From an uncultured virus (IMG/VR IMGVR_UViG_2931768940_000002) (taxonomy: Duplodnaviria; Heunggongvirae; Uroviricota; Caudoviricetes): 64,000 nt of DNA. Every line of letters starts with the position of its first letter. Position 1 is the stretch's first letter. The notes under the pieces were generated by a model. That model saw only the letters and a program-made list of their open reading frames with translations, was not told the origin of the DNA and did not search any database. The position numbers were made by a program, and so were the translations under genes. Below are positions 36,217 to 62,023 of the stretch, piece after piece. Where the stretch lies: IMG/VR virus record IMGVR_UViG_2931768940_000002. One strand, written 5' to 3'.

Positions 36217-36684
36217 TCACGGCCGCCACGCCTCCTGATAGTTGGGGTGGTCGGCGAAGGGTTGGGCGAGGATGCGGAGTCGCCGGTTGACGCGTGCGTC
36301 TCGGCCGCAGTCGCAGGGCCCAGGTGCCCGGCTTTCGTCGAAGCAGAGTGCCGCTCCGTCCTCGTCCTTGAGAGCGGCACAGAAGTACCAGTTGTCTTCC
36401 TCGAGCCGGTAGTGCTGGTCTGCGAGGAGGTCGTTGAGTAGGGCGAGCTTGGCGTCGAGGTCGGCGATGGCGTCGGGGTCAGGTGCGGGCGCAGTGGCGA
36501 TCTCGGTGTACTTCTCGGCGGGGCAGGGGTGCCCGTCGACGTACAGCGCTTCGGGTTCACCTATCGCGTAGCGCCACTCGACGTCACGCCCGTCGAAGAC
36601 GCTGGGGATGACCTTGCGCTTGCCGTGCTCGTTCTGGCGCGCCTCCTCGTATCGGGCGCGGAGGAAGCCGGCGAGGTCGGTCAT
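36217..36684 (-). CDS. DUF6221-like protein
   Basis: DLAGFLRAR...LAQPFADHPNYQEAWRP. Confidence 0.72.
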   Translation of the reverse strand: MTDLAGFLRARYEEARQNEHGKRKVIPSVFDGRDVEWRYAIGEPEALYVDGHPCPAEKYTEIATAPAPDPDAIADLDAKLALLNDLLADQHYRLEEDNWYFCAALKDEDGAALCFDESRAPGPCDCGRDARVNRRLRILAQPFADHPNYQEAWRP

Positions 36685-37466
36685 GATGCGGCCCCTCGCA
36701 GGGTCGGCAGCGCGGGGATCGTGGACGCGAGCCAACCGTCCGCCTCCGCTGTGAAGCGTGCAGCTGGCACGGTTTCCCACCACGATCGGACCGCTGTGGT
36801 CCGCACGGTCTCGAGGGTCCGCTTATCGGTGTACTCGACGGAACGCTCCCCGGTGCGGCGGATCGTGGTCTGGCCGCGCTTGCACTGGTCGGGGTAGTCG
36901 TTCCAGTTGACGCCCTTCTCCGCCCAGAGGAGTTCCTGCATTCCGTTGCTGGTGACCCCATGGAGCCGCTTGTGGGAGAAGTGGGCTTGGGCCGCCATGC
37001 TGATGCTGTTGCGGACGGCGTCGCGCTGCCGCCACAGGAAGTAGTTCGCGACTTCGACGGGGTCGCTGATGGTGAAGACGCGGGCGTCGAAGAGGGCCCG
37101 CTTGCCGGGGCGTCGTTCGTTGAGGACGGCGGTGGCGAGGGACGCGGACACGGTGAGCTGTTTGGCGACGACTCCGCCGAACCAGGGCTGGGTCTGTGGG
37201 GTGGCGAAGTCGGTGATCAGGATGCTGATCTCGTCGGACTGGTGGTAGGCGAAGACGGTTCCGCTGATCTCTTCGCAGAGCGCTTCGGCGACGGCGGCCA
37301 TGTCGGCAATGAACTGCATGTCGAAGGGTCTTTGGGCGTCTCGCAGGTAGGTGTGGAAGGCGCGGCCGTCGAGCCGGAGGATGGTGTAGGTGCGGCGGGG
37401 CAGCACAGTCCGGTGGGCGGCTTCGTGGGCTTTCATGCGGTCGCCGAGGGCGGTGGTGTCGCTCAT
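36681..37466 (-). CDS. tRNA(His) guanylyltransferase Thg1-like 3'-5' polymerase
   Basis: RLDGRAFH, YHQSDEISI, FDARV, YFLWRQRDAVRNSIS, KGVNWND...KRG. Confidence 0.92.
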   Translation of the reverse strand: MSDTTALGDRMKAHEAAHRTVLPRRTYTILRLDGRAFHTYLRDAQRPFDMQFIADMAAVAEALCEEISGTVFAYHQSDEISILITDFATPQTQPWFGGVVAKQLTVSASLATAVLNERRPGKRALFDARVFTISDPVEVANYFLWRQRDAVRNSISMAAQAHFSHKRLHGVTSNGMQELLWAEKGVNWNDYPDQCKRGQTTIRRTGERSVEYTDKRTLETVRTTAVRSWWETVPAARFTAEADGWLASTIPALPTLRGAAS

Positions 37467-38167
37467 GCCGCAACCCCGGCGTCTTCCCGCAGCACGGCGT
37501 CTTGCTGTTCCCGGAGTTGCTTCCACTCCCCCAGCGTCTCCCACCGTGCCCCGCACTGTCCGCACCGAACCCGGTGGCTGCTGGCGGTGGCGGTGAGGTC
37601 CGCCCGGCAGAGACCGTCGTCGGTACGGACGGGGCAGTGGCCGATCTTGACCCGGCCGGGCCGGTGCTCGTTCGCGGCGACGGCGACGCATTCGGCGTGG
37701 AGCTTGCGGATGTCGTCGATGTCCTGGCTGACGGAGTCGTAGGAGTCGACGGCCCACGGCAGGTTGTTGACCAGGAACTCGATGTGCTTGGGAACGGCTT
37801 GCGCCGGGCTCCCCCGCCATGGAGCGACGGTCCATCCGAGGGCGGCCCGCCACGCGTCTTCGATGTCGCGGAGCCGGGTTGCAACTCCCCCGTTGGCGGT
37901 GAGGGCGAGGACTTCGAGCCGGGGCGGGATGGGCGGGGTCTTGGATCCGCTGGTCGTTCCGCCGCCGCGGGTGGCCCCGCGCATGAGGGTTGCGGTCTCG
38001 CTGAGCCGGCGGAAAAGGGGCCCGAGCTCTGCGAGTCGTTTCGCTGTCTGGTCTTCGCAGGGGCGGCAGGCCAGCCGGCCAGCTTCGGCAACCCAGAGTT
38101 GGCGCCCGCAGTTCGGTGCTATGCAGGTAGGCCACTCGTAAGCCTGATCGTCAACGGGGTTGTGCAC
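37463..38167 (-). CDS. Zn-binding putative late-gene regulator
   Basis: CxxC clusters at both ends (CIAPNC, CRPC, CP...C, CGQC); position at the early/late boundary. Confidence 0.6.
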   Translation of the reverse strand: MHNPVDDQAYEWPTCIAPNCGRQLWVAEAGRLACRPCEDQTAKRLAELGPLFRRLSETATLMRGATRGGGTTSGSKTPPIPPRLEVLALTANGGVATRLRDIEDAWRAALGWTVAPWRGSPAQAVPKHIEFLVNNLPWAVDSYDSVSQDIDDIRKLHAECVAVAANEHRPGRVKIGHCPVRTDDGLCRADLTATASSHRVRCGQCGARWETLGEWKQLREQQDAVLREDAGVAA

Positions 38168-40842: not shown

Positions 40843-41070
40843 ATGTCGCCGAACATGCCCAAGACCCCGCCCCGCCAGATCCGCATCGGCGATACCTGGT
40901 ACGACTTCGACGCCGCAGCCAAGGCCATGGGAACCGAGCGCGCAGCTGTGATCCGCGAGCTCATCGACTGGTACATCCGCGAACCTGGGGCCAAGCTGCC
41001 GGAGCGCCCGAACCGGAGCATCGTCGAAGCCGCACGTGTGGTGCGAAGGAACGAAGAGGACACCGCGTGA
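40843..41070 (+). CDS. Ribbon-helix-helix repressor (leaderless)
   Basis: KTPPRQIRI...ERAAVIRELIDWY...KLPERP; TACGGT 6 nt upstream. Confidence 0.72.
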   Translation: MSPNMPKTPPRQIRIGDTWYDFDAAAKAMGTERAAVIRELIDWYIREPGAKLPERPNRSIVEAARVVRRNEEDTA

Positions 41071-41648
41071 CTGGCCCAATCGATCCCCGCCGCCTCACCA
41101 CCCTCTACCGACTGTTCGACGGCGATGACCAACTGCTGTACGTCGGCACGTCAGTCGACCCGCAGAACCGTTGGGAGCAGCACGCCCGGGAAAAGCTCTG
41201 GTGGTCAGCGGTGGCGCGGGCCACCGTCGAGTGGCACCCCGATCGCACGTCCGCGATGGCCGCCGAGCGTGCCGCCATCAAAGCTGAGGAGCCCCTGCAC
41301 AACGACAAAGCCACGCCTGACGAAGCCGTATTCCCCTATCGGGGGGCCCGGGGGCCGAGCGTCGACTCGCGCCTTCGCCGCGCTGTCGTCGAGCATCGCT
41401 CATCCCTCGACCGCCTCGCCGTTGCCGTGAACCGGGCCGCCTTGAGCGGGTTGGCTGTGGCAGAGATCGCCGAGACAGCCGGGCTGGACGAGGGGGACGT
41501 GTCGTATCTGGCCAAGCGAATGGAAGACGGTGGCGGATCAAGCGCCCTCGCCAAGCACACGCCCTACAGCCGAGAGTGGGCGAGGAAGATCGCCGACCGC
41601 ATCGACAAGGAGCGAGCCGCCAAGCAGGCCGAGGTGGAGCAGGCGTGA
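41067..41648 (+). CDS. GIY-YIG nuclease-like domain plus HTH
   Basis: LYRLFD...LLYVG...R..QH...AE..AI..E.PLHN; C-terminal EIAETAGL HTH. Confidence 0.7.
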   Translation: MTGPIDPRRLTTLYRLFDGDDQLLYVGTSVDPQNRWEQHAREKLWWSAVARATVEWHPDRTSAMAAERAAIKAEEPLHNDKATPDEAVFPYRGARGPSVDSRLRRAVVEHRSSLDRLAVAVNRAALSGLAVAEIAETAGLDEGDVSYLAKRMEDGGGSSALAKHTPYSREWARKIADRIDKERAAKQAEVEQA

Positions 41649-42172
41649 AAAACGTCAACGAGGTGGACGCCCTCGCCGCAGCCGCGCACGCCGGCCAGTT
41701 CGACAAGATCGGCGTGCCGTACATCGAGCACGTCCGCTCCGTGGCCGCCGGGCTCGCCCCGTTCGGTGATCACCTGGTGATGGCAGGGCTGCTGCACGAC
41801 GTCATCGAGGACACCGACTGGACTGCCGAGCAGCTGCGCAAGGCGGGCGTCCCGTATTACGTGGTCGCTCTCGTCGTGGCCGTCACGAATGAGCGGGGCA
41901 TCCCCTACGAGACGAAGGTGGCTCGCATCACGGGGCGCGGGCGTGACGCGGTGCTGCTGAAGGTCGCGGACAACGCGCACAACAGCCGTCCTGACCGGGC
42001 CGCGCAGCTTCCTGAAGAGAAGCGGACGCGGCTCGCCGCGAAGTACCGGACGGCCCGGGACATCCTCTGGCCCGCCGTCGAGGACCGGGACATCGAGACC
42101 ATCGTCAGGATCGTCAACCCGTCGCTGCTCGACGAACTCCGCGAGCGGCAGAACCCCGGGAGCCCCTCATGA
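41645..42172 (+). CDS. HD-domain small alarmone hydrolase-like protein (RelA/SpoT hydrolase, Mesh1-like)
   Basis: AHAGQFDKIGVPYIEH, LLHDVIEDT, KVADNAHN. Confidence 0.82.
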   Translation: MKNVNEVDALAAAAHAGQFDKIGVPYIEHVRSVAAGLAPFGDHLVMAGLLHDVIEDTDWTAEQLRKAGVPYYVVALVVAVTNERGIPYETKVARITGRGRDAVLLKVADNAHNSRPDRAAQLPEEKRTRLAAKYRTARDILWPAVEDRDIETIVRIVNPSLLDELRERQNPGSPS

Positions 42173-42576
42173 GCGACGCCTTGGTGGCCTTCCTCAAGAC
42201 CCGACTCGACGAGGACGAGCGGGTGGCGCGGGCCTGCGCGGGCGATGGGACGTGGACCGTCGAGGGCCTGGAGGTCTACGGGCCCGACCTGTCCGGCGAG
42301 GTTCGGGCCCACGCCGCCCGCCAGGACCCAGCCCGCACCCTGCGGGAGGTCGAGGCGAAGCGTGCCCTCCTCGCGGAGTATGGCGCGGCCGTAGCTGCAC
42401 GCGAGGAGGCGTCGACCGTGCTACAGAAGACGCGTGCCAGTGGATGGGATCCGATCATGGCCGAGCTCGAGGAGGCGTCCGCCATTCATAAGCGGGACGC
42501 ACTCCTTGGGGTGCTGCGCCTGCTCGCTACCGTGTACACCGACCACCCGGACTATCTGCCGGAGTGGCGGCCATGA
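42169..42576 (+). CDS. DUF6221-like protein
   Basis: LVAFLKTRLDEDE...DPARTLREVEAKR...YTDHPDYLPEWRP. Confidence 0.78.
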   Translation: MSDALVAFLKTRLDEDERVARACAGDGTWTVEGLEVYGPDLSGEVRAHAARQDPARTLREVEAKRALLAEYGAAVAAREEASTVLQKTRASGWDPIMAELEEASAIHKRDALLGVLRLLATVYTDHPDYLPEWRP

Positions 42577-45247: not shown

Positions 45248-46138
45248 TTACTTCTTGCGCAGCGAGTAGCGGACGAGGACGACGTCGTCGACGGGGATGC
45301 CGCATTCCTTGGCGTGGATGTTGCGGAGTCCGTCAAGGAGTTGGCCGACGGTGGCCCCGGGCGGGGGTGTGTAGCTGCCGGTGCGGTCTTTGGCGGGGTT
45401 CGATCCGGCCTTGGCGGGGCCGAGGGTGAGGGTGGCGCTCCACGCGTATTCGCCCTCGGGGAGGGGGGTGGTGGGGTCGTTGAAGTCGAGGCTGCTCGCG
45501 TCGCTCATGATTCCGTCCTCTGTGGTGGGCTGGCTTGTCTTTCTGCTGCTGGCGGGCTTGCGGCGAGGGGTGCGTGTCTGCGGCTCGGCCGGTGTGGTGG
45601 CTGTGGCGTCGGCGCCTTGCCCGTACCAGGCGCCGCCGACGCTCTTGCCGCCGTGCTTCTGCTTCTCGTGCTCGCGGAGGGCTTTGGTGGCTTCCTTGGC
45701 GTCGCGGAACTTAGGCTTCTCCTTCTTGCCGCAGGGGCAGGTCCAGCCGACGAGGCCGGTGCGCTTGTCGGGGCTGAATCGGGCGGCCATGGCGACCTTG
45801 ATGCGGCCGGCCTTGGCTTTGGTGGGCTTGGCGGGGCAGGGTTTGGATCCGCTGAATGCGCCGGTCTTCTTGTCCTTGGTGAAGATCTGGCCGTTGCCGT
45901 GGCAGGTGGGGCAGCCTTCGTGGGTCATGCGGAGGATCGCGGCGTCCTTGCGGGACATGACGGTGCTCTTGTGGGCGTCCATCTGGGCGGCGGCCTGGAG
46001 GGCGAACCACATGCCCACTCGGGCGGCCAGCGGGACGTTCTTGGGGACCTTGAGGCCTTTGCCGACGCGGGCGCGCGGGACAGGCTTCCGGCGGCGGGTA
46101 GCCGGCTTCCGGGTGGCGGTGGTCGTCTTCGCGGTCAT
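45248..46138 (-). CDS. Basic Zn-finger protein
   Basis: CPTCHGNG, CPCG...HEKQKH; possible internal start at MSDASS. Confidence 0.6.
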   Translation of the reverse strand: MTAKTTTATRKPATRRRKPVPRARVGKGLKVPKNVPLAARVGMWFALQAAAQMDAHKSTVMSRKDAAILRMTHEGCPTCHGNGQIFTKDKKTGAFSGSKPCPAKPTKAKAGRIKVAMAARFSPDKRTGLVGWTCPCGKKEKPKFRDAKEATKALREHEKQKHGGKSVGGAWYGQGADATATTPAEPQTRTPRRKPASSRKTSQPTTEDGIMSDASSLDFNDPTTPLPEGEYAWSATLTLGPAKAGSNPAKDRTGSYTPPPGATVGQLLDGLRNIHAKECGIPVDDVVLVRYSLRKK

Positions 46139-46185
46139 GGTCGGCGGATCCTTCCGGGTGATCAGTTTGTGGCGGTATGCGAGGT

Positions 46186-46335
46186 GCTCAAAGGGTGCTC
46201 AGCCCTGCTCCGCCGCAGGTCAGGGCCGCTCAGCCGAGTGCTCAGGGGGTGCTCACGGTTTCGTTGAGCAGGCGGCTGAGCAGGCTCTTGAGCGGCTGTG
46301 ACCTGCGGTTGAGCAGTCGTGAGCACCCCTTGAGC
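46186..46335. repeat. Inverted array of 7+7 phased GCTCA/TGAGC repeats (clt-like)
   Basis: GCTCA-like at 46186, 46197, 46207, 46218, 46228, 46240, 46251; TGAGC-like at 46265, 46277, 46289, 46299, 46310, 46320, 46331. Confidence 0.85.
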
Positions 46336-46345
46336 GGGGGGCAAA

Positions 46346-48364
46346 TCAGGAGATAGCAGTCAGAGCTTCGAGCTTGTAGCCGCGGGGGTTCTTCATCCCG
46401 TCGAGGGCTCCGAGCGTGACCGCGGCCCCCACCCCGGCCTCCCGCAGAAGGCCTTGCAGATCGGTGAGCTCCAGCAGGCCGTAGGCCTCGTGGTCGTGCC
46501 GCTTCAGGGCATCGGCAAGTACCTCGCTGCGCATCCGGTCGACCCCGGCTTCCGCCATCACTGCGATGGAGTCGGCGACGACCTGGCTGCTTGCGACGAC
46601 GCGCTCGGATCCTCCGTCCGCCAGGTGCAGCAGCCCGGCGGCGGCGAGGGTGTCCCGGTCGAACCACGGGCGGCCCGCGGTCTTACGGTCGGCGACTGCC
46701 TGCTTGATGGCCTGGTTGCTGTGCTCGTTCCACCCGTACAGCAACGGCCGGTTGAGGCCGGGGCCCTTGATGTACGACTGGCCGGCGTCGTTCTTGAGGT
46801 CCTTCGTCTGGGCGGGTACAAGCCGGTCGGGCCGGTACCCCTCGGTGATAGCGCCGCGGCCGAGAACGAGAGGGATGTCGTCCCACCGGGAGGCGAGCAT
46901 GATCCGGAGGGTGAACGTGTCAGCGATGGCGTCACCCATGGCGTCCGAGGTGGCGTCCTGCCCGGCAGCAATGGGGTAGATCCCGGACTGCTTGCCGAGG
47001 CGCAGCAGCTCGATGAAGCTCTCCTTGGCCGTTTTGCTGAGGTAGATGAACTCGTCGACGAACGGGAAGATCGCCGGGTGCTGCCGGGTCGCGATCCAGG
47101 TGTCGCCCATGTTGAGCCGGTTCCGGACGACCTGTCGGCCGCGGGCCATCTTGACCAGGTGATCGAGCCACTTCTCGCAGTCCTTGTTGCCGCGGATCGG
47201 TGGGGCGGCCATGACGCCTTCGAACTCGCGGAGCCCGTCCTTGACGGGGTCGAGGTCGAGGGCGATGGCGTTGTGGCAGGCGGTGATGGCTTCGGCGAGG
47301 TCTCGCAGGACACCGGTGGTCTTCGCGGCACCGGAGACACCGATGGCGAGGATGCGGAGGCCTTCGAGGATCAGGTTGAGGTCGCTGCCGTCCATGCAGC
47401 GGCCGAAGTTGTGTGGGGCGGAGATGTCTAGGCTGTTCGGGGCGTGCGGGGTGGGCTTCGGCATGCTCTCGAAGGGGTTGGCCTGGACGAGGCGCAGCGT
47501 GAGGTGGGCGGACTCTTGCGGGTCCGGGTCGATGAGTGTCCCGCCTCGCTTCACGTTGAAGTGGGAGTCGAGCTGGTCGGCGACGGCGTTGACCTTGCCG
47601 ACGGTGGAGCCCTTGAGGACGACGTCGACTTCCCAGCCCCATGCTTGGTGGCCGATGGCGCGGACTGCTCGGGTGCCGATGCCTTCGGCGGCGAGGGCGC
47701 GGGATACGCATTCGGCGACCTGCTCGCCGCTGGTGCAGTGTCCGAGGGGGAACGGCTCGTCGCTGTTCGGGTCGTCCTGGTCGGCGATGACCTGGTCGGG
47801 GGCGATGTCGGGGGTGTTGAGCCGGTACCTGCCGTAGAGGGCGGTCGTTGTCATGGCGAGGAGCCCGGTGGTGGTGGGCGGGATGGCCCAGGAGTAGTCA
47901 AGGGCGGTCATGCCGGCTCCGGCGACGAGGGCGATCCAGCCGGCGAGGTTGAGGGCGGCGGTGGTTGCCGCGGCGTAGCCGAGGAACCGCCACCTCGAGC
48001 GGCGTACCTGCTGGACCTTGTTCCAGTCGGCGCCCTTGGTGACTCCACCGAGAACTTCTTGGAGGTCGTGGGCGCGGACGTACCGGTAGCCGAGCCGGCT
48101 GCCTGCCTTGAGACCGGCCCAGAACCAGCCGCCGAACACGAGCCCGCCGTAGGCGCTGAGGCCGACGGCCCGCCCGGTGACGGACGCAACGACCATGGCC
48201 GCGGACCCGGCGTTACGGAGGACGGGGCGACGGTCGGGGAACGGCTCGAGAACGCCGGGGGCGATGTCCTCGACGATGCCGTCGTGGGCGATGGCCTGGC
48301 CGGAGATGACCTTGGTCATGTCCCAGCCGGCAGGGATCGTCAGCGGCTCGGCTTCGGTGCTCAC
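46346..48364 (-). CDS. TraB-like FtsK/SpoIIIE conjugative DNA translocase
   Basis: N-terminal TM helices; Walker A-like GVSGAAKT; Walker B FVDEF; LLRLGKQSGI...AGQDAT; LVLGRGA..EGYRPDRL; small C-terminal domain. Confidence 0.78.
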   Translation of the reverse strand: MSTEAEPLTIPAGWDMTKVISGQAIAHDGIVEDIAPGVLEPFPDRRPVLRNAGSAAMVVASVTGRAVGLSAYGGLVFGGWFWAGLKAGSRLGYRYVRAHDLQEVLGGVTKGADWNKVQQVRRSRWRFLGYAAATTAALNLAGWIALVAGAGMTALDYSWAIPPTTTGLLAMTTTALYGRYRLNTPDIAPDQVIADQDDPNSDEPFPLGHCTSGEQVAECVSRALAAEGIGTRAVRAIGHQAWGWEVDVVLKGSTVGKVNAVADQLDSHFNVKRGGTLIDPDPQESAHLTLRLVQANPFESMPKPTPHAPNSLDISAPHNFGRCMDGSDLNLILEGLRILAIGVSGAAKTTGVLRDLAEAITACHNAIALDLDPVKDGLREFEGVMAAPPIRGNKDCEKWLDHLVKMARGRQVVRNRLNMGDTWIATRQHPAIFPFVDEFIYLSKTAKESFIELLRLGKQSGIYPIAAGQDATSDAMGDAIADTFTLRIMLASRWDDIPLVLGRGAITEGYRPDRLVPAQTKDLKNDAGQSYIKGPGLNRPLLYGWNEHSNQAIKQAVADRKTAGRPWFDRDTLAAAGLLHLADGGSERVVASSQVVADSIAVMAEAGVDRMRSEVLADALKRHDHEAYGLLELTDLQGLLREAGVGAAVTLGALDGMKNPRGYKLEALTAIS

Positions 48365-51823: not shown

Positions 51824-51886
51824 AGTGGCACTCCACTAACGTAGCGCCTTCTCTGGACCGTGGCAATCCACTGTGGGACGATTCCT
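51824..51886. promoter_or_regulatory. Divergent promoters with GTGGCA(C/A)TCCAC operators
   Basis: Operators at 51825 and 51860 overlap a leftward TTGCCA-17-TACGTT promoter; rightward GACGAT lies 6 nt before ATG 51889. Confidence 0.65.
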
Positions 51887-51888
51887 TC

Positions 51889-52074
51889 ATGCCAGCCGGA
51901 ATCCACCTCAGAAAAGCCCGCACGTACCGGCCCGACCCGGACGTATACGAGCGCGCCAAGTCCGCCGTCGAAGAGGTGGACTCCGACATGAACAAGCACC
52001 TCAATGGCTTCCTGCTGTGGCTCGTCCACGACACAGACGAACTGCCGGCGCGTCCGCCCAGGAAGTCGAAGTAG
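51889..52074 (+). CDS. Small RHH-like repressor (Kor-like position)
   Basis: RTYRPD..VYERAK...MNKHLNGFLLWL...ELPARP; resembles the 40843 protein. Confidence 0.62.
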   Translation: MPAGIHLRKARTYRPDPDVYERAKSAVEEVDSDMNKHLNGFLLWLVHDTDELPARPPRKSK

Positions 52075-52241
52075 GTGATCGGCGTGTTGGTCATGTCCTC
52101 CATTCAAGGCCCGCGCGCCCTGCGTCACGAGGACCCCGCCGAGCCGCGAACACGCCACAACGCCGCTGTCACGCCACTGATGTGACACGGCAGCGACACC
52201 ACAGAGACTTGCCCGAGCACAGCCAGCACGGGAGCTGCACA

Positions 52242-52883
52242 GTGGAGATCGTCCAGACCTGGACCGGTCGCACCGCCTGCGTACTGCAGGCGGCCTTGCG
52301 GCTGACGAACGAACAGTTCGCCGAGCACCTCGGCATCTCGACGCGCACGATCGTCCGCTGGCATGCCAGACCCGACCTCGCCCCCCGCACCGAGATGCAG
52401 CAGCTGCTCGACACGACCTACGAGAAAGCTGGTGATGCGGTGCGGAGGCGCTTCGAACTGCTCTCAAGACCTGCCACGGTGGAGCCGACCCCTCAGGCGC
52501 AGGCCTTGCGGGTGGCGATCGCCGTGGTCCTGCGGGGCGACGAGGTGCTCCTGGTCTGCCGCCGCGGCGACGACTCGCTGTCCTGGCAGTTCCCGGCTGG
52601 CATGTGCAAGCCGGGCGCGGCAGTGACGTCGGTGGCGGTGCAGGAGACGCACGCCGAGACCGGGGTTCACTGCGCGGTCCGGGAGGAGCTGGGCTCGAGA
52701 GTGCACCCGAAAACGGGGGTGCTGGCCCACTACGTGCTCTGCGACTATCTGGCCGGCGAGGCTACGAACCGGGATGCCGTCGAGAACACGGACGTCACCT
52801 GGGTTCCTCTCGCGGCCCTGACCCGCTTCATCCCGACCGAGAACATCTTCCCGCCCATCTTGAGCGCCTTGGAGGCCGCGTGA
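52242..52883 (+). CDS. XRE-HTH fused to a degenerate Nudix domain
   Basis: LTNEQFAEHLGISTRTIVRW HTH; WQFPAGMCKPG...AVQETHAETG. Confidence 0.8.
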   Translation: MEIVQTWTGRTACVLQAALRLTNEQFAEHLGISTRTIVRWHARPDLAPRTEMQQLLDTTYEKAGDAVRRRFELLSRPATVEPTPQAQALRVAIAVVLRGDEVLLVCRRGDDSLSWQFPAGMCKPGAAVTSVAVQETHAETGVHCAVREELGSRVHPKTGVLAHYVLCDYLAGEATNRDAVENTDVTWVPLAALTRFIPTENIFPPILSALEAA

Positions 52884-53353: not shown

Positions 53354-53932
53354 TCAGGAGTCTTCAGCGAGGAGCTTGGCCAGCTGCGCCACAGCTTCGG
53401 GGTCCATGTTCCGCCGAATCGCCTTCGCGATGTTCTCAGGCTTGTCCACGGGCACGGAGACGAGCTTCCGGCGGAAGCCAGCCTGCACCATAGCTGCATG
53501 TGTGGAGAGGTTGCCGGCGAGCACCTCTGCGTGCAGATCCGGTCGATCCTTACGGAGCCGGCGCAGCCCGGCTTCTTTTGAGGTCCCATCCGGTTTGGCC
53601 ACCTCGTTGATATTATCAACGAGGTCTGTTCGTTCACCCGCGCGCCCAACCAGGGCTTGATCCAAAAGATCCGCCGCCACTGGGTCGTCAGCCACGATTC
53701 TCTTGAGCAGGTCGACACTCGCCCCCAATCCGGCTGTCGGGGGCGTGACCACGAAATCGACGAAACGCCTATGCTCGATCAGCTTCCCCACCGGGGTGAC
53801 GAATTCCCGCCACGCTTCCTCCTCCATCACGCGACGAAGAAGGGCGGGAATGTCAGCCAGCCCATTGCCCGTAGACCGGATACCGCTACCCAGTGCCTGC
53901 ACCAGCACAGCGTTAGCCTTCGGTGATCGCAT
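53354..53932 (-). CDS. Hypothetical partner of the HNH-helicase (C-terminal HTH-like)
   Basis: TGATG coupling; GTSKEAGLRRLRKDRPDL...LSTHAAMVQAGFR. Confidence 0.72.
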   Translation of the reverse strand: MRSPKANAVLVQALGSGIRSTGNGLADIPALLRRVMEEEAWREFVTPVGKLIEHRRFVDFVVTPPTAGLGASVDLLKRIVADDPVAADLLDQALVGRAGERTDLVDNINEVAKPDGTSKEAGLRRLRKDRPDLHAEVLAGNLSTHAAMVQAGFRRKLVSVPVDKPENIAKAIRRNMDPEAVAQLAKLLAEDS

Positions 53933-55806
53933 CACGCGTCCGCGATCCACCGGTCGAGGATGACGAGCCGCTCGCTAAGCGTCTCAGCAGTCGCCTGGTC
54001 GATCGATCGTTCACCAAACGCCTTGTTGAGCTCACTGTGGATGTGACTGTGCGGCTTTCGTGTCATGCGGCTGAACTGGCCAACCTTACGCTTGATCAAG
54101 TTTCGGATTTCCTTCTTCCGCTCTGACAGTGTCTGCTCAACCTGCGGTTCGGGCGTCGCCCCAGGCTTGGCGGAGGAGCCAGTAAGGCGGAGCAGTCGCG
54201 CAATGGCCGACGCTTCCGTTCCTGGGGGCAGGCCAGCCTGCTGCCCCAGGCGACGCGCGTGCAGGAGTTCCTCTTCGTCGAAGGCGTCACCGCTGTTGAT
54301 CGTGAAGGCGTGGGCGGCAGCGGAGGAGCCGATGACCTCCGGGATCCTCGGCTTCGCACGGTCCGTCCCCTCCCCCTCTCCAGTTGAGCGGCGGACCTTG
54401 CTCTCCTCATCGGCGAGTACCGCGTCCACCGTCCGCTCAACGGCGGCAGCGAACGCGAGCAGTTGGCTGATCGACGGAATGAACACGCGGGCGCACATAT
54501 CGTCTTCGTCGCCCTGCTTGCGGACGCACCTGCCGACGACCTGTCGAAAGAACATCTCGGTTCGGATCCGGGTTGCGTACACGATGACGCCGATACGAGG
54601 GATGTCGACCCCCTCGGAGACCATTTGTACGGCGACGAGCCAGTGCGAGTCACCCTTCCCGAAAGCCTTGATCACATCAGATGCTGCTGGGTCGTCGGAC
54701 ACCGCAATGTCCACCCGCTCGCCAGTCTGGCGGCGAAGGATCTCGGCGTATGCATGGGCGGATGCCTGGTCGGTGGCTACAACAAGTCCGCCGCAGTCAG
54801 GCTTGTCCATGCGCATGAGTTCAAGTTCTTCATGCGCACGGAGGAGAACGGAAGGGATCCATTCACCCGTGGGCGCCAGGGCAGCCTTGAGGGCGGCAGC
54901 AATCGTGGTGGGGTCGGTTTCCGACAGCTTCTGGGCAACCGGGTGCTCTGACGCGAAGCGCCACCGGGCTTCGCCGTCCATGGCCGGGAAGGCAACAGGC
55001 CGGACAACCTCTTGGTCCTGCAGCGCCATCCCGTAGTCGTAGTTGATGTCCGGTACGACCCTGCGGGCGGCATCGTAGTTGAGGAACGGGATTGCCTTCC
55101 CGTCGCTGCGGAAGGGCGTGCCAGAGAGTGAGAGCCGACGGTAGGCGTCACCGAAGGCCGTGCCGAGCGCCGTCCCCCAGGCCAGGTTCTCGGCGTCGCC
55201 GGCGTGGTGCACCTCGTCCAAGATGACGAGCGTCGGTTTCCTGGGGTCGCAGGCGAGCTTTCGCCAGAGGATCGGACTGGCGGCAACAGACTGGTAGGTG
55301 GCGACGACGCCGTCGTAGTCCCGGGCTACCTGCTGGTTCTTGTTCACGAAGTTCGAGTCAAGCTTGATGCCCTCTCGGCTCGCAGCCGACTCCCACTGGC
55401 CGCGAAGGTGTGCGGTAGGGACGATGACGATGATGTTGGAGATTTCGCTCCTGTCAAACATTGCCTTTGCCGCCTGAACGGCGAAGGTCGTCTTGCCGGC
55501 GCCGGGGGTTGCGACGACGAGAAAGTCTCCCTGTGCGCCGAGGAACCTACGCAGGCCGTCTTCCTGCCACTTGCGGAGCCGCATGTAGGTGGAGCCCTTC
55601 TGGAGATTGCAAGGAGGGCAGAGTGCCTGCCCGTTGATGACATCGGTGGGGCCGCCTGCGGAGTACGGCTGAATGTGGTCGCCGTGCCAGCTGGGCTGGA
55701 GGGCGGTTCCGCATCGCTCGCATCGCCCGTCAGCCGCCAGCCAGAGAGCGGTACGTTCTGCGGAGTTGAAAAGGCGCCGTTGGGCGCTTGAAGGTTCAGC
55801 AGGCAT
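53932..55806 (-). CDS. HNH endonuclease fused to an SF2 (DEAD/ResIII-like) helicase
   Basis: CERC...DHIQPYSAGG...NGQALCPPCN; TPGAGKT; DEVHH; SGTP; EGVDIP; QVVGR. Confidence 0.88.
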   Translation of the reverse strand: MPAEPSSAQRRLFNSAERTALWLAADGRCERCGTALQPSWHGDHIQPYSAGGPTDVINGQALCPPCNLQKGSTYMRLRKWQEDGLRRFLGAQGDFLVVATPGAGKTTFAVQAAKAMFDRSEISNIIVIVPTAHLRGQWESAASREGIKLDSNFVNKNQQVARDYDGVVATYQSVAASPILWRKLACDPRKPTLVILDEVHHAGDAENLAWGTALGTAFGDAYRRLSLSGTPFRSDGKAIPFLNYDAARRVVPDINYDYGMALQDQEVVRPVAFPAMDGEARWRFASEHPVAQKLSETDPTTIAAALKAALAPTGEWIPSVLLRAHEELELMRMDKPDCGGLVVATDQASAHAYAEILRRQTGERVDIAVSDDPAASDVIKAFGKGDSHWLVAVQMVSEGVDIPRIGVIVYATRIRTEMFFRQVVGRCVRKQGDEDDMCARVFIPSISQLLAFAAAVERTVDAVLADEESKVRRSTGEGEGTDRAKPRIPEVIGSSAAAHAFTINSGDAFDEEELLHARRLGQQAGLPPGTEASAIARLLRLTGSSAKPGATPEPQVEQTLSERKKEIRNLIKRKVGQFSRMTRKPHSHIHSELNKAFGERSIDQATAETLSERLVILDRWIADA

Positions 55807-55942
55807 GAGGGGGCCGCCTCTTGGGTCAGATTGACCAGATGCTCACATGATATTCACCAACTCGGACCGTGGTGGCCGGATGTCAGGAAAGATCCACCCT
55901 CAAGACTTTTACTGCTGAGTAACAGGACATTCGGCTTGGGCC

Positions 55943-55993
55943 CGCGCACGGAGAGCCCCGCCCCATCAGGGCCGGGACTCTCTGCCGTGCGGG
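55943..55993. terminator. Hairpin separating the early operon from the helicase island
   Basis: CGCACGG-AGAG-CCCCG...CGGGACTCT-CCGTGCG imperfect inverted repeat. Confidence 0.5.
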
Positions 55994-56623
55994 TTAGGAG
56001 GCTGCTGACGGATGGCACGGGCAACTGCACGGCTTCCCGGTGAACGTGTTGTTGAGCCGGCACTGCTGGTGCATCCGGTCCCGCCACCTGGGGAGGTTGT
56101 CGTGCTCCGGGTTTCGGATGATCGCCCCGTCGATGAGGCGTGCAGTTTCGCAGGCGGTCGACAGGTACGTGCGATGGGCGAGGAGTTCCAGGACGTCGGC
56201 GGGGAGCTGCTCGGGGGTGGAGCCGGGCGAGTTGCTGGTCTTTTGCACTCCAGGGCACTGCCTCGAGGCCCGGCCGCGCATGAACTTGTGGGCAGGGTGC
56301 GGCTTCTCCCGCCCGCACGGCTGGGTGGACCAGGCGTCGGCCGGAACGCTGCTGTACCCCTCGCAGTACACGCGCTTCATGCCCGGCTGGGGCTCCCAGG
56401 AGTGGCCCGGGTGGGCTTGGCGGCAGTACGCCAGGCTGCACTGGAGAAGCTGCTGGTGGAGTTCGGGGTGGGCGCAGCAGGTATCAAATCCGCCGTGGCA
56501 GTCGGACTCGGTGTCGCCTGCGGTTGGGCAGTAGTAGACGGTGGCGCCGGGCCTGCAGACGTGGTTGTCCGGCGCGTCGCCGCTGGCCACCGGGTTGTCT
56601 GGGGTTGTCCGGGCGTTGTTCAC
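55994..56623 (-). CDS. Cys/His-rich hypothetical protein
   Basis: Many C/H clusters; YLSTAC...CSCPCH. Confidence 0.55.
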   Translation of the reverse strand: MNNARTTPDNPVASGDAPDNHVCRPGATVYYCPTAGDTESDCHGGFDTCCAHPELHQQLLQCSLAYCRQAHPGHSWEPQPGMKRVYCEGYSSVPADAWSTQPCGREKPHPAHKFMRGRASRQCPGVQKTSNSPGSTPEQLPADVLELLAHRTYLSTACETARLIDGAIIRNPEHDNLPRWRDRMHQQCRLNNTFTGKPCSCPCHPSAAS

Positions 56624-56907
56624 GCTCCGGCTCCGATCGCAGCCAGGTCGAGTGCGGGCCGCGGTACGTCGTCGGCGAGGCGGGCGACGGTGGCCTCGTC
56701 GACGGCCAGCTGGTGCCCGCACGGGGTCAGGGCGATGGTGTGGGTGAGGACGGCCAGGCCTGCGGTGGTGAGCTCGGCGCCGGTCACCTCTCCCCCGCAG
56801 GCGTAGCAGGGCGGGTAGTCGTCGAGCGGGGCACCGGCCTGGTGCTGGCGAAGGCGGGCGGCCTCGACCAGGGCGTAGGCGAGGACCTGGGCGTAGGTAG
56901 GAATCAT
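56620..56907 (-). CDS. Hypothetical protein
   Basis: CYAC...PCGH; coupled overlaps. Confidence 0.5.
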   Translation of the reverse strand: MIPTYAQVLAYALVEAARLRQHQAGAPLDDYPPCYACGGEVTGAELTTAGLAVLTHTIALTPCGHQLAVDEATVARLADDVPRPALDLAAIGAGA

Positions 56908-57302
56908 CGCTGCTGCTCCAGGGAGTGAGCTCGGTCGGCCGCGGCCTCGAGGAGGTGGGCGAGTTGCTGTTCGGTGTGGGTAGCTGCCCATCCCGCGACG
57001 ACCTGGTGCGCATGGCCGACGCGCTGCGAGAACTGGGTGGCGCCCCAGCTGGCATTAGGCCAGCCCTGATCGGTGACCTCGGGGTCGACTAGACCGCCGA
57101 GGACGATGAGGGCGACGCCTTCCGCGATGGCGTGCTCGGGGGTAATCACGGCGGCGAAGTCCTCGAACATGGTGGCGCCGAACAGGCTGCGTCGCAGGGC
57201 GCCAAACGGGCCCTGGCCGGCGTAGGCGGCGGCTTCACGGAGGCTTCGGGAGATCGTGGGGGCAGTGGGGAGCTCGGCAAGCTCCGTGGCGGACATGCTC
57301 AC
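56904..57302 (-). CDS. Hypothetical protein
   Basis: Coupled overlaps with neighbours. Confidence 0.5.
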   Translation of the reverse strand: MSMSATELAELPTAPTISRSLREAAAYAGQGPFGALRRSLFGATMFEDFAAVITPEHAIAEGVALIVLGGLVDPEVTDQGWPNASWGATQFSQRVGHAHQVVAGWAATHTEQQLAHLLEAAADRAHSLEQQR

Positions 57303-57729
57303 TTCTTCCTCCTGGCGAGTGCTCGTCGGGTGGCCCTGTTGGGGCGGGGGTCGGGGGCGTCGTCGGCTATGAGGCGCTCCCCGGTGGTTCCAAGGGTGGT
57401 TTCCCAGCGGGTGCCGGGGCGGCCGTTGTGTTCGCCGCGGGGGCTGCTCGATGGTCTAGTCACGACCGGCCTCCGTTGCGTCCGGCCCGGGGCCGCCCGG
57501 TGGTGTCGAGGTGGCCGTCGGCGGTGGCGAGCATGCGGAGGGCGCGCTCGAGGACGTGGGCGGGCTGCTGCCCGGGGTAGCAGCGGCGGAGGACGCCCGC
57601 GGTCCAGGCGGTGGCGGCCAGGCACATCGGGCGGTTGAGAGGGGCGCTCATGGTGAGCCTCTTTCGACGGGGCGGGTACAGGAAGTTGCCGGGCGGCCGG
57701 CGGCGCAGGGCCGCCGGCCGCGGGGCGGG

Positions 57730-58125
57730 TCAGACCGTGTCGGGGTCGACGCTGGGGTGCGTGAACGTGATCGGCTTGCCCAACCTGCGGGCGTAGGCGA
57801 TCTCGCTGCGGGTGCTGTCACCGATGTAGTCACCGACGACGATCACCCGGTTGGCGAGGCGGATCTTCTGCTCGTGCTGCTGTGCGAGACGGGCCGCCAG
57901 GGCTTCGGCGTCAGCCGGATCAGCCCACAAGGGGTGCGGCAGCTTCAGGTTGCACTGGGGCTTGAGGACCAAGGCGCCGGCCATGGCCTCCTGCTCGACC
58001 GCGACTTCCGCCATCAGGTCAGCGAACCGCAGTGATCCGCAGAGGACGACGACGTCCTTGATGCCGAGGTCGGCTTTCGCTTCGGTGAGCTTCTCCATCG
58101 TGCTCGAGGGTGTGGGGTACGGCAT
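57730..58125 (-). CDS. Nucleoside deoxyribosyltransferase-like (flavodoxin-fold) protein
   Basis: VVLCGSLRF...H.QKIRLA...YIGDSTRSEIAYA...GKPI. Confidence 0.65.
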   Translation of the reverse strand: MPYPTPSSTMEKLTEAKADLGIKDVVVLCGSLRFADLMAEVAVEQEAMAGALVLKPQCNLKLPHPLWADPADAEALAARLAQQHEQKIRLANRVIVVGDYIGDSTRSEIAYARRLGKPITFTHPSVDPDTV

Positions 58126-58198
58126 GTGGATCTCCTTCGGGTTGTGTGATGTGGTGTCAGCACGCCCGCCCGGATAAGCCCCGGGCGGGCGGCCTGGT

Positions 58199-58660
58199 TC
58201 ACGGGGTGGGCTGGTGGGTGGGCTGCCCGGCGGTGAGCTCGGCGACCCGCTGCTCCAGCTCCCTGACGTGCTCGTCGCGGACGCCGAGGATCAGGTTGGC
58301 GATGTGGTCGGCGGTGTGCCGGAGGTCGGGGTACGCGTCGGTGAGGGCGGCTACGTGCCGGGCGTGCAGGGGACGCCGGTCCACCTCGGGGGCGGAGGCC
58401 TCCAACTCCCGGACGCGGGCCTCAGCCGTGGCACGGTGCTTCTGCTCGTACTTCCATGCCTGCCGGTAGGACTCGCGCTCGCCGCAGATGGTGCGGAAGT
58501 GTCGGGCCTGCTGCTCGGCGTCAAGCTCGGCCTGCTCGATGGCGGCCTCTCGCTCTCCGACGAGCGTGGCGAGGGCTTCCCCTTCGTCGGGGAGGATGAC
58601 GCCGCGCCTTGCCCGGTCGAGGAGGTGGTGGAGGCGGTCGGGCTCGGGCTGGGTGGTCAC
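58199..58660 (-). CDS. Hypothetical coiled-coil protein
   Basis: GTGA coupling; RVRELE repeats. Confidence 0.5.
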   Translation of the reverse strand: MTTQPEPDRLHHLLDRARRGVILPDEGEALATLVGEREAAIEQAELDAEQQARHFRTICGERESYRQAWKYEQKHRATAEARVRELEASAPEVDRRPLHARHVAALTDAYPDLRHTADHIANLILGVRDEHVRELEQRVAELTAGQPTHQPTP

Positions 58661-58938
58661 CGGGCCCCCTCGGCTCGGCGCTGCATCGCGGCGCGCTCGA
58701 TCTCGCACCACCGGTCGGGGTCGAAGCCCCACCTGCTGGCGTCCCATTCGGTGGCCTGGTCGCGGATGCTGAGCCACTCGTCGAGGAGTTCGTTGCGGCG
58801 GTCGGGGTCGGTGGTGGCGGCGAGGGCGTCCGCGATGCGCTGAAACGCCTTGGGGTGAGCGGGCACGTCGTTGTGTTCCTTCCGGGTGGGGTGGCCGCCC
58901 CGGGGTGGGGCGGCCACGAGACGGGGTGGGCGCGAGGG

Positions 58939-59415
58939 TCAGGCGGCAGGGACGATCCTCGGGATCGGCCCGGTGGTGACGGTGGTGGTGCGCCAGGTGA
59001 TGCGGTGCTCGCACTCCGGGTGCTTGGCCTGCTTCACGAAGAGCTGCTGCTGGATGTACGCCGGGTCGGGCGAGGAACTGCTGCCCTGCACCCACGTCCC
59101 GTCGGGCTGCTGGACCTCGATGAGGTACTCCAGCGTGCTGGTGGTGGTCTGCTCGTCGATGGCGCCGATGGCCGGGTACAGGTCGGGGGCTGCGAGGCAG
59201 GCGTCGACGACGAGGTGGAGTACGGCGGCGTCCTTTGGGTGGTCCTCGTCGCGCGGGTGTCGGCGGCCGTGGACGTAGCCCATGACGGCGGCTTCGCGGA
59301 TCAGGGTGCGCTCGCGGTCGGTGAGGTTGCCGAGGAACTTGGTGACGGCGTCGGCACGTTCTGCGCTCCGCTGGACGAAGTAGTCAACGAGTGCGTCGGG
59401 CAGGGGCTGGGCCAT
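58939..59415 (-). CDS. Hypothetical protein
   Basis: AAGGAG ribosome-binding site; LIREAAVMGYV. Confidence 0.55.
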   Translation of the reverse strand: MAQPLPDALVDYFVQRSAERADAVTKFLGNLTDRERTLIREAAVMGYVHGRRHPRDEDHPKDAAVLHLVVDACLAAPDLYPAIGAIDEQTTTSTLEYLIEVQQPDGTWVQGSSSSPDPAYIQQQLFVKQAKHPECEHRITWRTTTVTTGPIPRIVPAA

Positions 59416-60053
59416 CGGGTGCTCCTTCGGTCGTGGTGCGGCTGGTTGCGGTGTGCTGTGTGCCTGTGTCCGGGCCTGTGCCGTCCGTGGTGGAGCAGGA
59501 GTGCGGCTGTGGTCCCGAGGGCGGTGCACAGGGCCACGTGCAGGACGGCATGCGCAGGGGTCACGAGGCGGGGGTGGGCCAGGCTTGGCGGCATCCGTTG
59601 CTGCGGCAGCGAAGCCGGGCCGGGGCGTCGGTGGGCCGCCAGGGGTTCGTGTGGTCTAGGACGGACCGGCCGCAGCGCGACATGGTGCCGCCGTAGCCGG
59701 GGCTGCCTGCCATGTGCAGGACGGTGGCGGCGTGGACGTTGGGGCGGGAGTACCAGGACGCGTCACGGCTCGCGGCCCACGGCTCGGTGTCCGGCTGCTG
59801 TGTCACTTCGGCTCCTCGGTGGCGTGCAGCGCTGCGGCAAGTCGGGTGTACGCCTCCGCCTGGCGGGCGTTCAGGTCGCGGAGGGTTCGGCAGGCCGCCC
59901 GGAGCCCGGCAATGTGCTGCTCGCGGCGGGCGTCCAGCCAGTCGAGGATGTCCTCGGTGCCGAAGTGGGCGATCTGGTCGACCGTGAGGGTCAGCAGCCA
60001 GGCGGTACGGGCCTCGCGCTCGTCCTCTTCGCTGATCTCGGCTACCTGCGTGC

Positions 60054-60953
60054 TCACGGGGTCGGCTCCTCGGTCACGGCGGGGGCGGCCGGGTGCGGCG
60101 CGTGGTGCGGGCAGTCCAGGCCCCGTTCCCATCCGCTGATCTGGTCGACGGTGTCTCCGGGGCCGAGGAGCCGGGGAGTGCCGCCCTGTCGGGTCCAGGG
60201 GATGCAGGTGCAATCCGGCGAGCCGAACGCCGTCTCGGTCTCGGCGGGGGCGGGCTGCTGCGCCTCGGCGGCAACCCCGTCGGCCACGTCGCGGAGCTCG
60301 GCAGCGGCGGCGCGCACAGCCTGGTCCCAGACCTCGTCGCGCTCGCTGGCTGCCGGGGCGACGGAGTGGATAAGCGCCTGCTCGATGAGGTCTGCGCCCT
60401 CGCGCAGGGTCGTGGCCCGGCGCCCGTCCTGTTTCGCGAGCACAGCGCGGTGCAGGTGGGCGATCATCTCCCGGGCCGCCTCGGGCACCAGGTAGTCACC
60501 GCAGTCGCATACCTGGCAGTCGTCCTCGAAGTGCTGCGCCTCGGTGTGCCCGCAGATGCAGACCGGGGCGGGCGCCTCGGTCTCCGGCTGCCCGGTGGTG
60601 GTGCCGAGAACCCGGCGGGCCACCGCGAGGGCGTGCTGCGCGTCCTCGGGCATCGGCCCGTGCTCGGCCAGGTCCACGCCGGTCCAGCTCTCCAGCCAGG
60701 CAGCGACGGCGAGGCCGGTGGCCGGGCCGACAAGCGCGAGGTATGCGTTCACCCGCTCAAGGCGGGTGGCGTAGGTCTCGATGAGGACAGAGGGCTGCTC
60801 CTGGTCGTCGACGACGACGGGGCTCTTGCTGCCGAGCGTGTGGCCGGTAGACCAGGTGGTGCGGCCCTCGTGGATCGCGGCGGTTGCCCGGTCACGCAGC
60901 AGGCTCGCGGCCTCCCGGAGCAGGGCGGCAGGGTTGGTGGGTGTGGGTGACAT
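60054..60953 (-). CDS. Mosaic hypothetical phage protein
   Basis: GGAGG ribosome-binding site; CICGH...C motif. Confidence 0.5.
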   Translation of the reverse strand: MSPTPTNPAALLREAASLLRDRATAAIHEGRTTWSTGHTLGSKSPVVVDDQEQPSVLIETYATRLERVNAYLALVGPATGLAVAAWLESWTGVDLAEHGPMPEDAQHALAVARRVLGTTTGQPETEAPAPVCICGHTEAQHFEDDCQVCDCGDYLVPEAAREMIAHLHRAVLAKQDGRRATTLREGADLIEQALIHSVAPAASERDEVWDQAVRAAAAELRDVADGVAAEAQQPAPAETETAFGSPDCTCIPWTRQGGTPRLLGPGDTVDQISGWERGLDCPHHAPHPAAPAVTEEPTP

Positions 60954-61030
60954 GGGGCCCTCCAGGGCGGGGTGCGTGGGTAGGGTGGTGGGGCGCCCGC
61001 CGGTCTCGACCCGGCGGGCGCACTGCGTGG

Positions 61031-61468
61031 TCACGCGGCGTCGTCGCGCTTCCACTGCTCCTCGCGCTCACGGAGCTGGAGGTTGAGCTCGGCCGCGCCT
61101 TCGTGGTCCCGGTCCTGCTCTGCCTGTGCGGCCAGTGCCGAGTACGACTGGCGGATCTCGTTGCGCCGCACCTCGGGGTCGGGGTGCTTCGCGACCCACG
61201 CGCGGACTGCCTGCTCGATCTCCAGCAGAGCGGCGTTCCCGCGGGCCTGCGCGGCGTCGTTCTCCGGGCTGTCGGTGAGGGTCTGGGATGCGCGGCGGAC
61301 GGCGCGGTTGTAGCAGGCGGACGGCTTCTCGATGTCGCGCATGAGGGCCATCAGGTCGAGGATTCGGGGGCTGGTCACGGTGTGCTCCTTCAGGTCGAGT
61401 TGTCCGGGGATGGGCGGGGTGGGTGGGGTGTCGAGGAGACGGCGGGTGTGGTCCAGGGCGGGGGTCAC
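61031..61468 (-). CDS. Hypothetical protein
   Basis: Co-oriented; start uncertain. Confidence 0.45.
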   Translation of the reverse strand: MTPALDHTRRLLDTPPTPPIPGQLDLKEHTVTSPRILDLMALMRDIEKPSACYNRAVRRASQTLTDSPENDAAQARGNAALLEIEQAVRAWVAKHPDPEVRRNEIRQSYSALAAQAEQDRDHEGAAELNLQLREREEQWKRDDAA

Positions 61469-61789
61469 GCGGGCTCCGTTCCGTGAGGGGCTGTACGGCT
61501 CTCTGCGGGCCTGGGGAGCCTTCCGGGTTCCCGGGCCCCGCCTGAGGGGCTGTTAGCCCCACACGCGGCCACAGAGGCGGCACGGGCGCGCACACCCCAA
61601 CGACCGGTCCCCCGGACGACGGCAGGCAATAGGCGCATCACGCCGCCTCCCCGTAGAACCGAACGTCCCGGTTCGTCGACCACACGTGGCCGCACCGGTC
61701 GCACCGGTACAGGTGGCTGACCTCGGTGCCGGAGTCGTGCTCGGCGGCCGGCTGGACGTTCTCCCGCGGGCAGCGGGGGCAGTTGTCGT

Positions 61790-62019: not shown

Positions 62020-62023
<4 letters not shown>
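61790..62023 (-). CDS. Small hypothetical protein after DnaB
   Basis: ATGA overlap; RPGAWP.G motif. Confidence 0.5.

Follow-up and report, generated by a model that had tools for sequence, protein, structure and literature searches.

A mirror-symmetric array of short, helically phased repeats, located at positions 46186..46335 directly behind the gene of a TraB-like translocase, is probably a clt-type cis-acting site at which the element's own TraB-like pump would be loaded on double-stranded DNA. The array was analysed within its window, that is the whole stretch of 64,000 nucleotides of viral DNA under study, and was compared with related loci from genomes, plasmids and viral contigs. A clt-like role had been put forward in the original prediction and is the reading best supported by these comparisons, which point to a motor gene of the FtsK/TraB type upstream of the array and to a repeat word that co-varies with the C-terminal domain of this motor.

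Background

Motors of the FtsK type are oriented on DNA by polar 8-mers. The KOPS of FtsK and the SRS of SpoIIIE are polar 8-bp words read by a C-terminal winged-helix (gamma) domain, and their orientation sets the direction of pumping. These words are dispersed over the chromosome, with a switch of polarity at dif or at the terminus.

The site described here bears on the question of how the ring of a TraB pump recognises the DNA of its own element and transports a circular duplex that has not been cut (Choufa et al.). The clt locus of the Streptomyces plasmid pWTY27 is bound by its translocase in EMSA and footprinting and is needed in cis for transfer, the TraA footprint covering four 7-bp direct repeats together with inverted repeats within a site of 175 bp, which overlaps traA at its 3' end (PMC3583192). 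According to the passages of this account that deal with other plasmids, the clt of pJV1 consists of nine direct repeats and two inverted pairs, and the 8-bp repeats of the pSVH1 clt (TRS) are read by helix alpha3 of a C-terminal wHTH (PMC3583192). As summarised in the literature on pSVH1, pJV1 and pIJ101, the reader of the words of pSVH1 (8 bp) and pJV1 (9 bp) is the C-terminal winged helix of an FtsK-like TraB hexamer, the clt of pJV1 and pIJ101 also hold imperfect inverted repeats, and specificity differs between the plasmids (PMC3583192, PMC4447253, PMC4170104).

Results

Architecture of the array

Seven GCTCA-type pentamers followed by seven inverted TGAGC-type pentamers, 10 to 12 bp apart, had been predicted from the sequence, and the start positions of the units bear this out. 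On the + strand, the distal arm (46186..46255, itself unstranded) comprises five GCTCA units starting at 46186, 46197, 46228, 46240 and 46251, one GCTCC variant at 46207 and one GGTCA variant at 46218, with successive spacings of 11, 10, 11, 10, 12 and 11 bp. The traB-proximal arm (46265..46335, also unstranded) comprises, on the same strand, six TGAGC units starting at 46265, 46277, 46289, 46310, 46320 and 46331 and one TGACC variant at 46299, with spacings of 12, 12, 10, 11, 10 and 11 bp; viewed on the sense strand of traB, this arm is of the GCTCA type. The array totals 14 phased pentamers (7+7), made of 11 exact and 3 variant units. Its centre of symmetry is an unstranded 9-bp spacer (46256..46264), and the axis near 46260 is the best palindrome centre (z = 10). 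When the whole window was scanned for the pentamers, the best 160-bp segment contained 11 exact copies, and at least 4 copies were reached in only 214 of the 63,841 segments of this length, which is about the number that overlaps the array (compared as a total, not segment by segment).

The array had also been placed directly downstream of the TraB-like gene. It begins 10 bp past the translocase stop codon and fills the gap that separates the stop of this gene (46346..48364, −) from the start codon at 46138 (ATG) of the following gene, which is encoded on the same strand.

The window was aligned without gaps to its 90% and 82% relatives. In this three-genome alignment 1 of the 70 columns forming the pentamer cores is variable, compared with 29 of the 80 spacer columns (Fisher 1.4e-8), and selection thus appears to act on the words of the array rather than on its spacers. 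A logo built from 42 units reads sTGCTCA, with a firm TGCTCA, an S at position -2 and positions -3 and -4 that are G/C-rich but variable, so that the conserved word measures 6-7 bp (sTGCTCA) and no clear 8-mer emerges from these units. The stretch is spanned by sequencing contigs of one isolate and of one soil metagenome, the only change being at 46336, beside the array, and two other soil runs provided fragments only over the array stretch.

The translocase gene

The gene upstream of the array (46346..48364, −) encodes P0001, a 672-aa protein that PHROG, profile and structure comparisons predict to be a divergent DNA translocase with an FtsK/TraB-type motor. Taken by itself, P0001 had no match in Pfam or NCBIfam, even at E 10, and a single-sequence search of the PDB was empty. 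It nevertheless matches PHROG 12531 (FtsK/SpoIIIE-like) with an E of 1e-67 and is 34-37% identical to Streptomyces plasmid genes, some of which are annotated as DNA translocase FtsK. A profile built from 30 homologues matches FtsK 2ius (E 1.8e-7), and 7 of these 30 family members reach Pfam FtsK_SpoIIIE (PF01580). The model of residues 180-672 has a pLDDT of 89.8 and finds its best structural match in the same FtsK motor, 2ius (E 2.9e-15, TM 0.69 on the target). The Walker A lysine (K169) and the Walker B pair (D258-E259) are invariant in the translocase family, and two long hydrophobic stretches, near residues 55-85 and 120-150, which may be an N-terminal membrane anchor, are visible in the translation.

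The C-terminal domain (residues 575-672), proposed here as the reader of the repeats, is encoded at 46349..46642 (−). Its model has a pLDDT of 81.6, and its top structural matches are all winged-helix proteins, at weak scores (Foldseek E 0.24 or worse; VIA Z 5.0-6.2), FtsK gamma not being among the structural matches listed; the model thus weakly suggests a winged-helix-like C-terminus. A comparison of the GIY-YIG nuclease encoded at 41067..41648 with the TraB C-terminus revealed no similarity.

Layout across the translocase family

The 401 genomes of the genus of genome G001 were searched with P0001, and 29 of them had a match at E 1e-20 or better. The genome loci, four plasmid loci and the window constitute a set of 35 loci, L001 having been dropped beforehand as a duplicate of L003. 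An array was considered two-armed when the sequence after the stop codon held at least 3 copies of a k-mer in one orientation, followed by at least 3 copies in the opposite orientation. Such a 3+3 array is found directly past the stop codon in 25 of the 35 genomic or plasmid loci, against 2/35 control regions inside traB and 4/34 at 500 bp downstream, and in 36 of 70 IMG/VR viral loci; true plasmids such as pFP1 also carry it. The two-armed inverted layout, which the original prediction had regarded as unusual, is with these counts the rule in this family of translocases and no oddity. The position of the array behind traB is maintained across plasmids, integrated elements and phages that differ in their other modules.

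The helical phasing is likewise a property of the family: 120 of 160 spacings of up to 45 bp lie within 1.3 bp of a multiple of 10.8 (binomial p 4e-41), compared with 12/40 and 10/48 in the phasing controls, and the best period of the array spacings across the family is 10.5 bp. A clear 3+3 array is missing in 10 of the 35 loci; an ORF lies directly past the translocase gene, instead of an array, in L017 and L018, and short or degenerate arrays are present in L015, L022, L023, L025, L026, L031 and L035. A scan of genome contigs yielded one true relative only.

The decamer pair

The fourth unit of each arm had been described as one and the same variant of the repeat, forming a perfect inverted pair. 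The pair is indeed perfect in the window, where the distal decamer CCGCAGGTCA (46213..46222, +), in phase with the repeats, has the proximal decamer TGACCTGCGG (46299..46308, +) as its inverted partner. Its description as a repeat variant does not hold, since the decamers remain constant in loci built on unrelated words, for example GTGACG, GGAAC and CTCTAC; as judged from these sequences, the fourth unit is a family-wide invariant element, separate from the repeat.

The family was scanned for the pair as a GCAGGT hexamer followed, 70-115 bp further on, by ACCTGC, behind traB. Both hexamers are present in 21 of the 35 loci, only one of them in 11 and neither in 3, and the pair is found in 34 of the 70 viral loci. 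The flanks of the hexamers are mostly CCGCAGGTCA and TGACCTGC(G/A), regardless of the repeat word. The distance from hexamer to hexamer is 86-90, 98 or 108 bp and therefore changes in steps of about one helical turn. A single central CCGCAGGT is present in L005-L007.

Searched over whole genomes, the pair pattern occurs in 168 of the 401 genomes against about 142 of 401 for a backwards control, so that the decamer pair alone is not diagnostic; a TraB homologue adjoins 3 of the 30 pattern loci examined, all three of which were already in the locus set. The fixed place of the pair behind traB is far beyond chance. A literature search with the decamer strings gave no Streptomyces paper among the matches listed. 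A specificity domain that varies does not explain a decamer that is invariant, and the reader of the decamer must itself be conserved across specificity classes.

Repeat words and the translocase C-terminus

The words of the arrays fall into several types. TGCTCA is used in the window, L003 and L004, and the words CTGCTCA, TGCTCG, GGGTGCT and TGCTA are used in L012-L014, L016 and L019-L022. The arrays of L005-L008 are made of CGTCT, CGTCC and CCGGC, those of L009-L011 of GTGACG, those of L027-L030 and L036 of GGAAC, those of L032-L034, including plasmid pFP1, of CTCTAC, and those of L024 and L026 of TGCGTC.

The two parts of the window translocase have different closest relatives. Its motor (residues 200-570) is closest to L005 (75% identity), L006 (59%), L007 (58%) and L008 (44%) and shares 31-37% identity with the remaining loci. 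Its last 98 residues are closest to L022, L020, L019, L021, L014, L013, L012 and L016 (38-49%, E 1e-14 to 1e-19), and match L005-L008 at an E of 0.001 or worse. The eight loci closest by their C-terminus are exactly those with TGCTCA-like words. Among these, L021 and L014 have motors that are 92% identical and C-termini that are 53% identical, with the words TGCTA and CTGCTC, respectively, and L016 and L012 have motors at 83% and C-termini at 61%, with the words TGCTA and GGGTGCT. The co-variation of repeat and C-terminal domain among homologues, which had been proposed as a check, thus came out in favour of the original prediction: the word follows the C-terminus, while the motor is nearest to L005-L008.

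The proteins encoded on either side behave differently. The downstream gene (45248..46138, −) encodes P0002, a protein of 296 aa whose N-terminus is very basic and whose two Cys pairs, CPTC and CPCG, suggest a zinc ribbon; the family searches gave no match for P0002, and it is conserved only in the group formed by the window and L003-L008. Over its first ~180 aa, P0002 shares 54-70% identity with the orthologues of L005-L008, whose arrays use other words, and it therefore does not track the repeat. Upstream of the translocase gene, P0003 (48361..49659, −), a 432-aa coiled-coil/basic protein with hydrophobic segments, takes the place of the DUF2637 genes of related plasmids. Its identities form a mosaic, reaching 64-69% with distant loci (68% with L005; 64-68% with L010, L012, L013 and L020) but only 38% with the genes of the closest TraB relatives, L003 and L004. 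This similarity pattern is unrelated to the repeat word, and the mosaic indicates that recombination inside the transfer module is frequent.

Since neither P0002 nor P0003 tracks the word, the C-terminus of the translocase alone does so, and in these alignments the word goes with this domain and with neither the motor nor the neighbouring genes. The combination of a motor near CGTCT-type relatives with a C-terminus and a word that both match a distant clade suggests that domain and array were exchanged as a unit, so that the C-terminal codons and the array would pass between elements as one specificity cassette. As these codons adjoin the array, one recombination moves both, and co-inheritance by such a single event would give co-variation even without a functional link.

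Short soil contigs (runs X5, X7 and X9), compared over 46190-46330, match only the decamer-containing parts of the array and then continue with other words, of the CTGCTCA and TGCTA types, which suggests that sister elements of other specificities are present in the same soils.

Leader and transcription

The leader of the downstream gene (46139..46185, −) contains, on the sense strand, an A/C-rich box, CATACCGCCACAAAC, and a GGAAGGA ribosome-binding site, the box being located between the array and the ribosome-binding site. An A/C-rich box of the ACCACCACAAAC type also occurs behind the same-class arrays of L012-L014, L016 and L019-L022, as well as in L029, and is absent behind the arrays of L005-L008, where CCCTATTGATCCATATTTGT is found instead; the box goes with the TGCTCA class. 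A scan of 45900-46600 revealed neither a promoter nor a terminator consensus at the array and leader, and no intrinsic terminator (a G+C-rich stem followed by a T-run) was found over the same interval. Because there is no promoter consensus between the array and the next gene, the array is probably transcribed together with the operon.

Discussion

Alternative explanations

The symmetry of the array raises the question of a long hairpin, acting in mRNA as a terminator, attenuator, processing site or 3' stabiliser, or in DNA as a cruciform or single-strand origin, in which case the repeats would be incidental. The predicted fold is strong, both as RNA (-108.2 kcal/mol, z -12.4) and as DNA (-59.5, z -9.8), arm-to-arm palindromy is significant in most loci, and the probable transcription of the array with its operon would make a role in RNA possible. 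A hairpin, however, requires neither direct repeats within each arm nor a 10.5-bp phase, and the positions conserved are those of the words and not of the stem as such. The three-genome alignment contains 0 compensatory pairs, the spacer changes losing 8 pairs and altering 3 on one side, and the pairing observed equals that of shuffled controls; there is also no U-tract and no terminator call. The cruciform named as an alternative in the original prediction thus finds no support from covariation, and we regard a hairpin function as quite unlikely. The same prediction had mentioned a translated repeat ORF (46162..46344, −), to which a second frame (46177..46356, +) can be added. Each strand has one open frame in all three sequences, those of the window and its two close relatives, but open frames are expected in a palindrome of 68% G+C whose six TGA triplets happen to miss one frame. 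The variable columns are distributed 12/8/14 over the codon positions, with no third-position bias, against 35/23/97 in the last 600 nt of traB; pentamers placed every 10-12 bp hit all three frames, and the frames have no family match. Translation of the array is therefore extremely improbable.

Proteins other than the translocase could also read the repeats. The array might be an operator or a centromere-like site for a Kor/TraR-type repressor, a ParR-like adaptor or a host factor, and would then control the downstream spread genes or partition. Two clusters of repeats phased at ~11 bp are reminiscent of plasmid centromeres, for example parC of R1, the array immediately precedes the next gene, and the invariant decamer needs a reader conserved across specificity classes. 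Against this stand the word, which tracks the translocase C-terminus and neither flanking gene, and the constant position of the array behind traB in elements with differing modules. In addition, no partition gene of the parC/ParR type or GntR-type gene is annotated among the 67 ORFs of the window compared with PHROGs or among the ORFs scanned with Pfam and NCBIfam, and the genes that flank the array are those of the translocase and P0002. The centromere that the original prediction had considered thus loses ground, and we hold this explanation as a whole to be unlikely. An iteron-type replication origin of the element would be consistent with the fact that long inverted repeats bound by Rep can be origins, IR2 of pWTY27 being an example in the published account (PMC3583192). 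The array nevertheless travels with traB rather than with genes of replication, and the DnaB-like helicase and primase genes are 15 kb off on either side; the array has no AT-rich unwinding stretch, and the same layout recurs in elements of very different size and type, which makes an origin very unlikely.

Proposed function as a loading site

The preferred reading remains a clt-type loading site for the TraB-like pump. The array shares with such sites its place next to a tra gene and its clustering of short direct and inverted repeats. In the mechanism that we infer, the six sTGCTCA words of each arm would all face the same side of the helix (period of about 10.5-11 bp), and each arm would also hold one invariant decamer. 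The winged-helix-like C-terminal domains of a translocase hexamer would bind and read the words, six domains docking on the six words of one arm, and the decamer would be a common assembly element. Owing to its inverted arms, the site equals its reverse complement, and such a mirror site might load two rings in opposite orientation, or one ring either way. Directionality would then follow from the loading, with both arms of the closed, uncut circular genome pumped away from the site, or towards it, and the prophage DNA could be transferred in this way.

By analogy, the window site would be of the same kind as the published clt sites, which are clusters of repeats beside tra that are bound by the translocase. 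The clt of pWTY27 resembles it by its size of ~175 bp, its position at or just behind the 3' end of tra and its short direct and inverted repeats. It differs, in the account of PMC3583192, by having four TGACACC together with CCCGCCC repeats where the window has a 7+7 mirror, and the description given there includes no invariant CCGCAGGTCA pair, which the window array has; binding was demonstrated experimentally for pWTY27, whereas it is inferred for the window. The sites of pSVH1, pJV1 and pIJ101, as summarised in these publications, are clusters of direct repeats, in contrast to the two equal, phased and inverted arms of the window, and the summaries mention no family-wide invariant element. 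A comparison of the window translocase with PLSDB matched no classical small plasmid. The FtsK motor fold is common to the KOPS and SRS systems and to the window; unlike these dispersed words, the 14 words of the window lie within 150 bp, and their polarity switches in the middle of the array.

The pWTY27 account and the summaries on pSVH1, pJV1 and pIJ101, in the parts that concern these sites, describe neither the 7+7 mirror plan as a family trait, nor the invariant decamer pair, nor the exchange of a domain together with its site, parts of which may already be in print. The large TraB family would share a common blueprint for its sites, associating variable phased words with an invariant decamer pair. 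The natural swaps of domain plus site predict which residues read which bases, and the family offers many matched pairs of translocase and array.

The prophage-like element and related phages

The translocase gene is located inside a tailed-prophage-like element of roughly 60 kb with synteny to two Streptomyces genomes. At 7.5-31 kb of the window are found genes for terminase, portal, protease, capsid, tape measure, tail and lysis, and the siphovirus module (7588-31132, −), with terminase, portal, protease, scaffold, capsid, connectors, major tail, endolysin and holin genes and a tape measure of 1633 aa, looks complete. A primase-like gene is present at 30.5 kb, and a helicase region extends over 53932-63777, with an HNH-helicase at 54-56 kb and a DnaB-like helicase at 62-63.8 kb. 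The position of the TraB module between replication and packaging genes indicates that the whole window is one prophage-like element. The same gene order, at 66-88% DNA identity, is found in Streptomyces chromosomes behind L004 (G312) and L003 (G001), and relatives of the translocase are encoded on 70 IMG/VR viral contigs. A megablast of 40-56 kb gave no phage match, and plasmids matched in short patches only.

The virion-independent spread that this mechanism would imply for the prophage has a precedent in the Streptomyces plasmid-phage pZL12 (phage ZL12, NC_013420), a tailed-phage genome that also has an FtsK/SpoIIIE-like tra gene and whose transfer requirement is quoted in PMC3583192; its tra region is differently built. 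Among phage DNA, its endolysin gene matches the window best (75.7%), the rest of the genome showing no DNA relationship to the window. The tra gene of pZL12, gp071, is a different FtsK-like gene, followed by a short ORF and a simple hairpin, with no phased mirror array and no decamers.

The presence of the module inside tailed prophages, including the 70 IMG/VR contigs, bears on the question of whether temperate actinophages may spread in a conjugation-like manner. We tentatively combine these elements into a wider proposal, which we consider possible rather than probable: the array would be a bipartite and bidirectional platform, common to a whole family of TraB pumps of actinomycetes and associating a universal decamer with a private cassette of word and C-terminal domain, on which two opposed rings would serve the virion-free spread of a 60-kb phage. 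The decamer would act there as a nucleation or assembly element, its reader being either a host factor or a conserved portion of the pump, and the phased variable words around the decamers would be the private address of the element. If this is true, a 60-kb temperate phage could spread through the mycelium without virions.

The 130-kb lytic Streptomyces phages Samisti12 (L037) and Coruscant (L038) encode an FtsK-like translocase, at 30-38% identity, among tRNA genes. In these two phages and in 12 IMG/VR contigs of 121-136 kb the next gene abuts the translocase gene, with no array and no decamer; among the IMG/VR loci, 17 have neither hexamer, of which 12 are on the 121-136-kb contigs. With its gene abutted in this way and no array, the lytic-phage translocase would have its DNA target, if any, elsewhere.

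Elsewhere in the window, a gene at 51873-52883 (+), transcribed against the transfer genes, encodes a protein of 336 aa that has an HTH-like stretch at its N-terminus and a NUDIX domain (Pfam E 6e-13) at its C-terminus, and that may resemble Pif, the NUDIX transfer-immunity protein of pSAM2. A tRNA-His guanylyltransferase-like protein is encoded at 36681-38135 (−; PHROG 4717, E 1e-72). The guanylyltransferase-like gene is adjoined by a small + strand island (41067-42576), with genes for a GIY-YIG nuclease, an HD phosphohydrolase and a DUF6221 protein, in an element otherwise encoded on the − strand.
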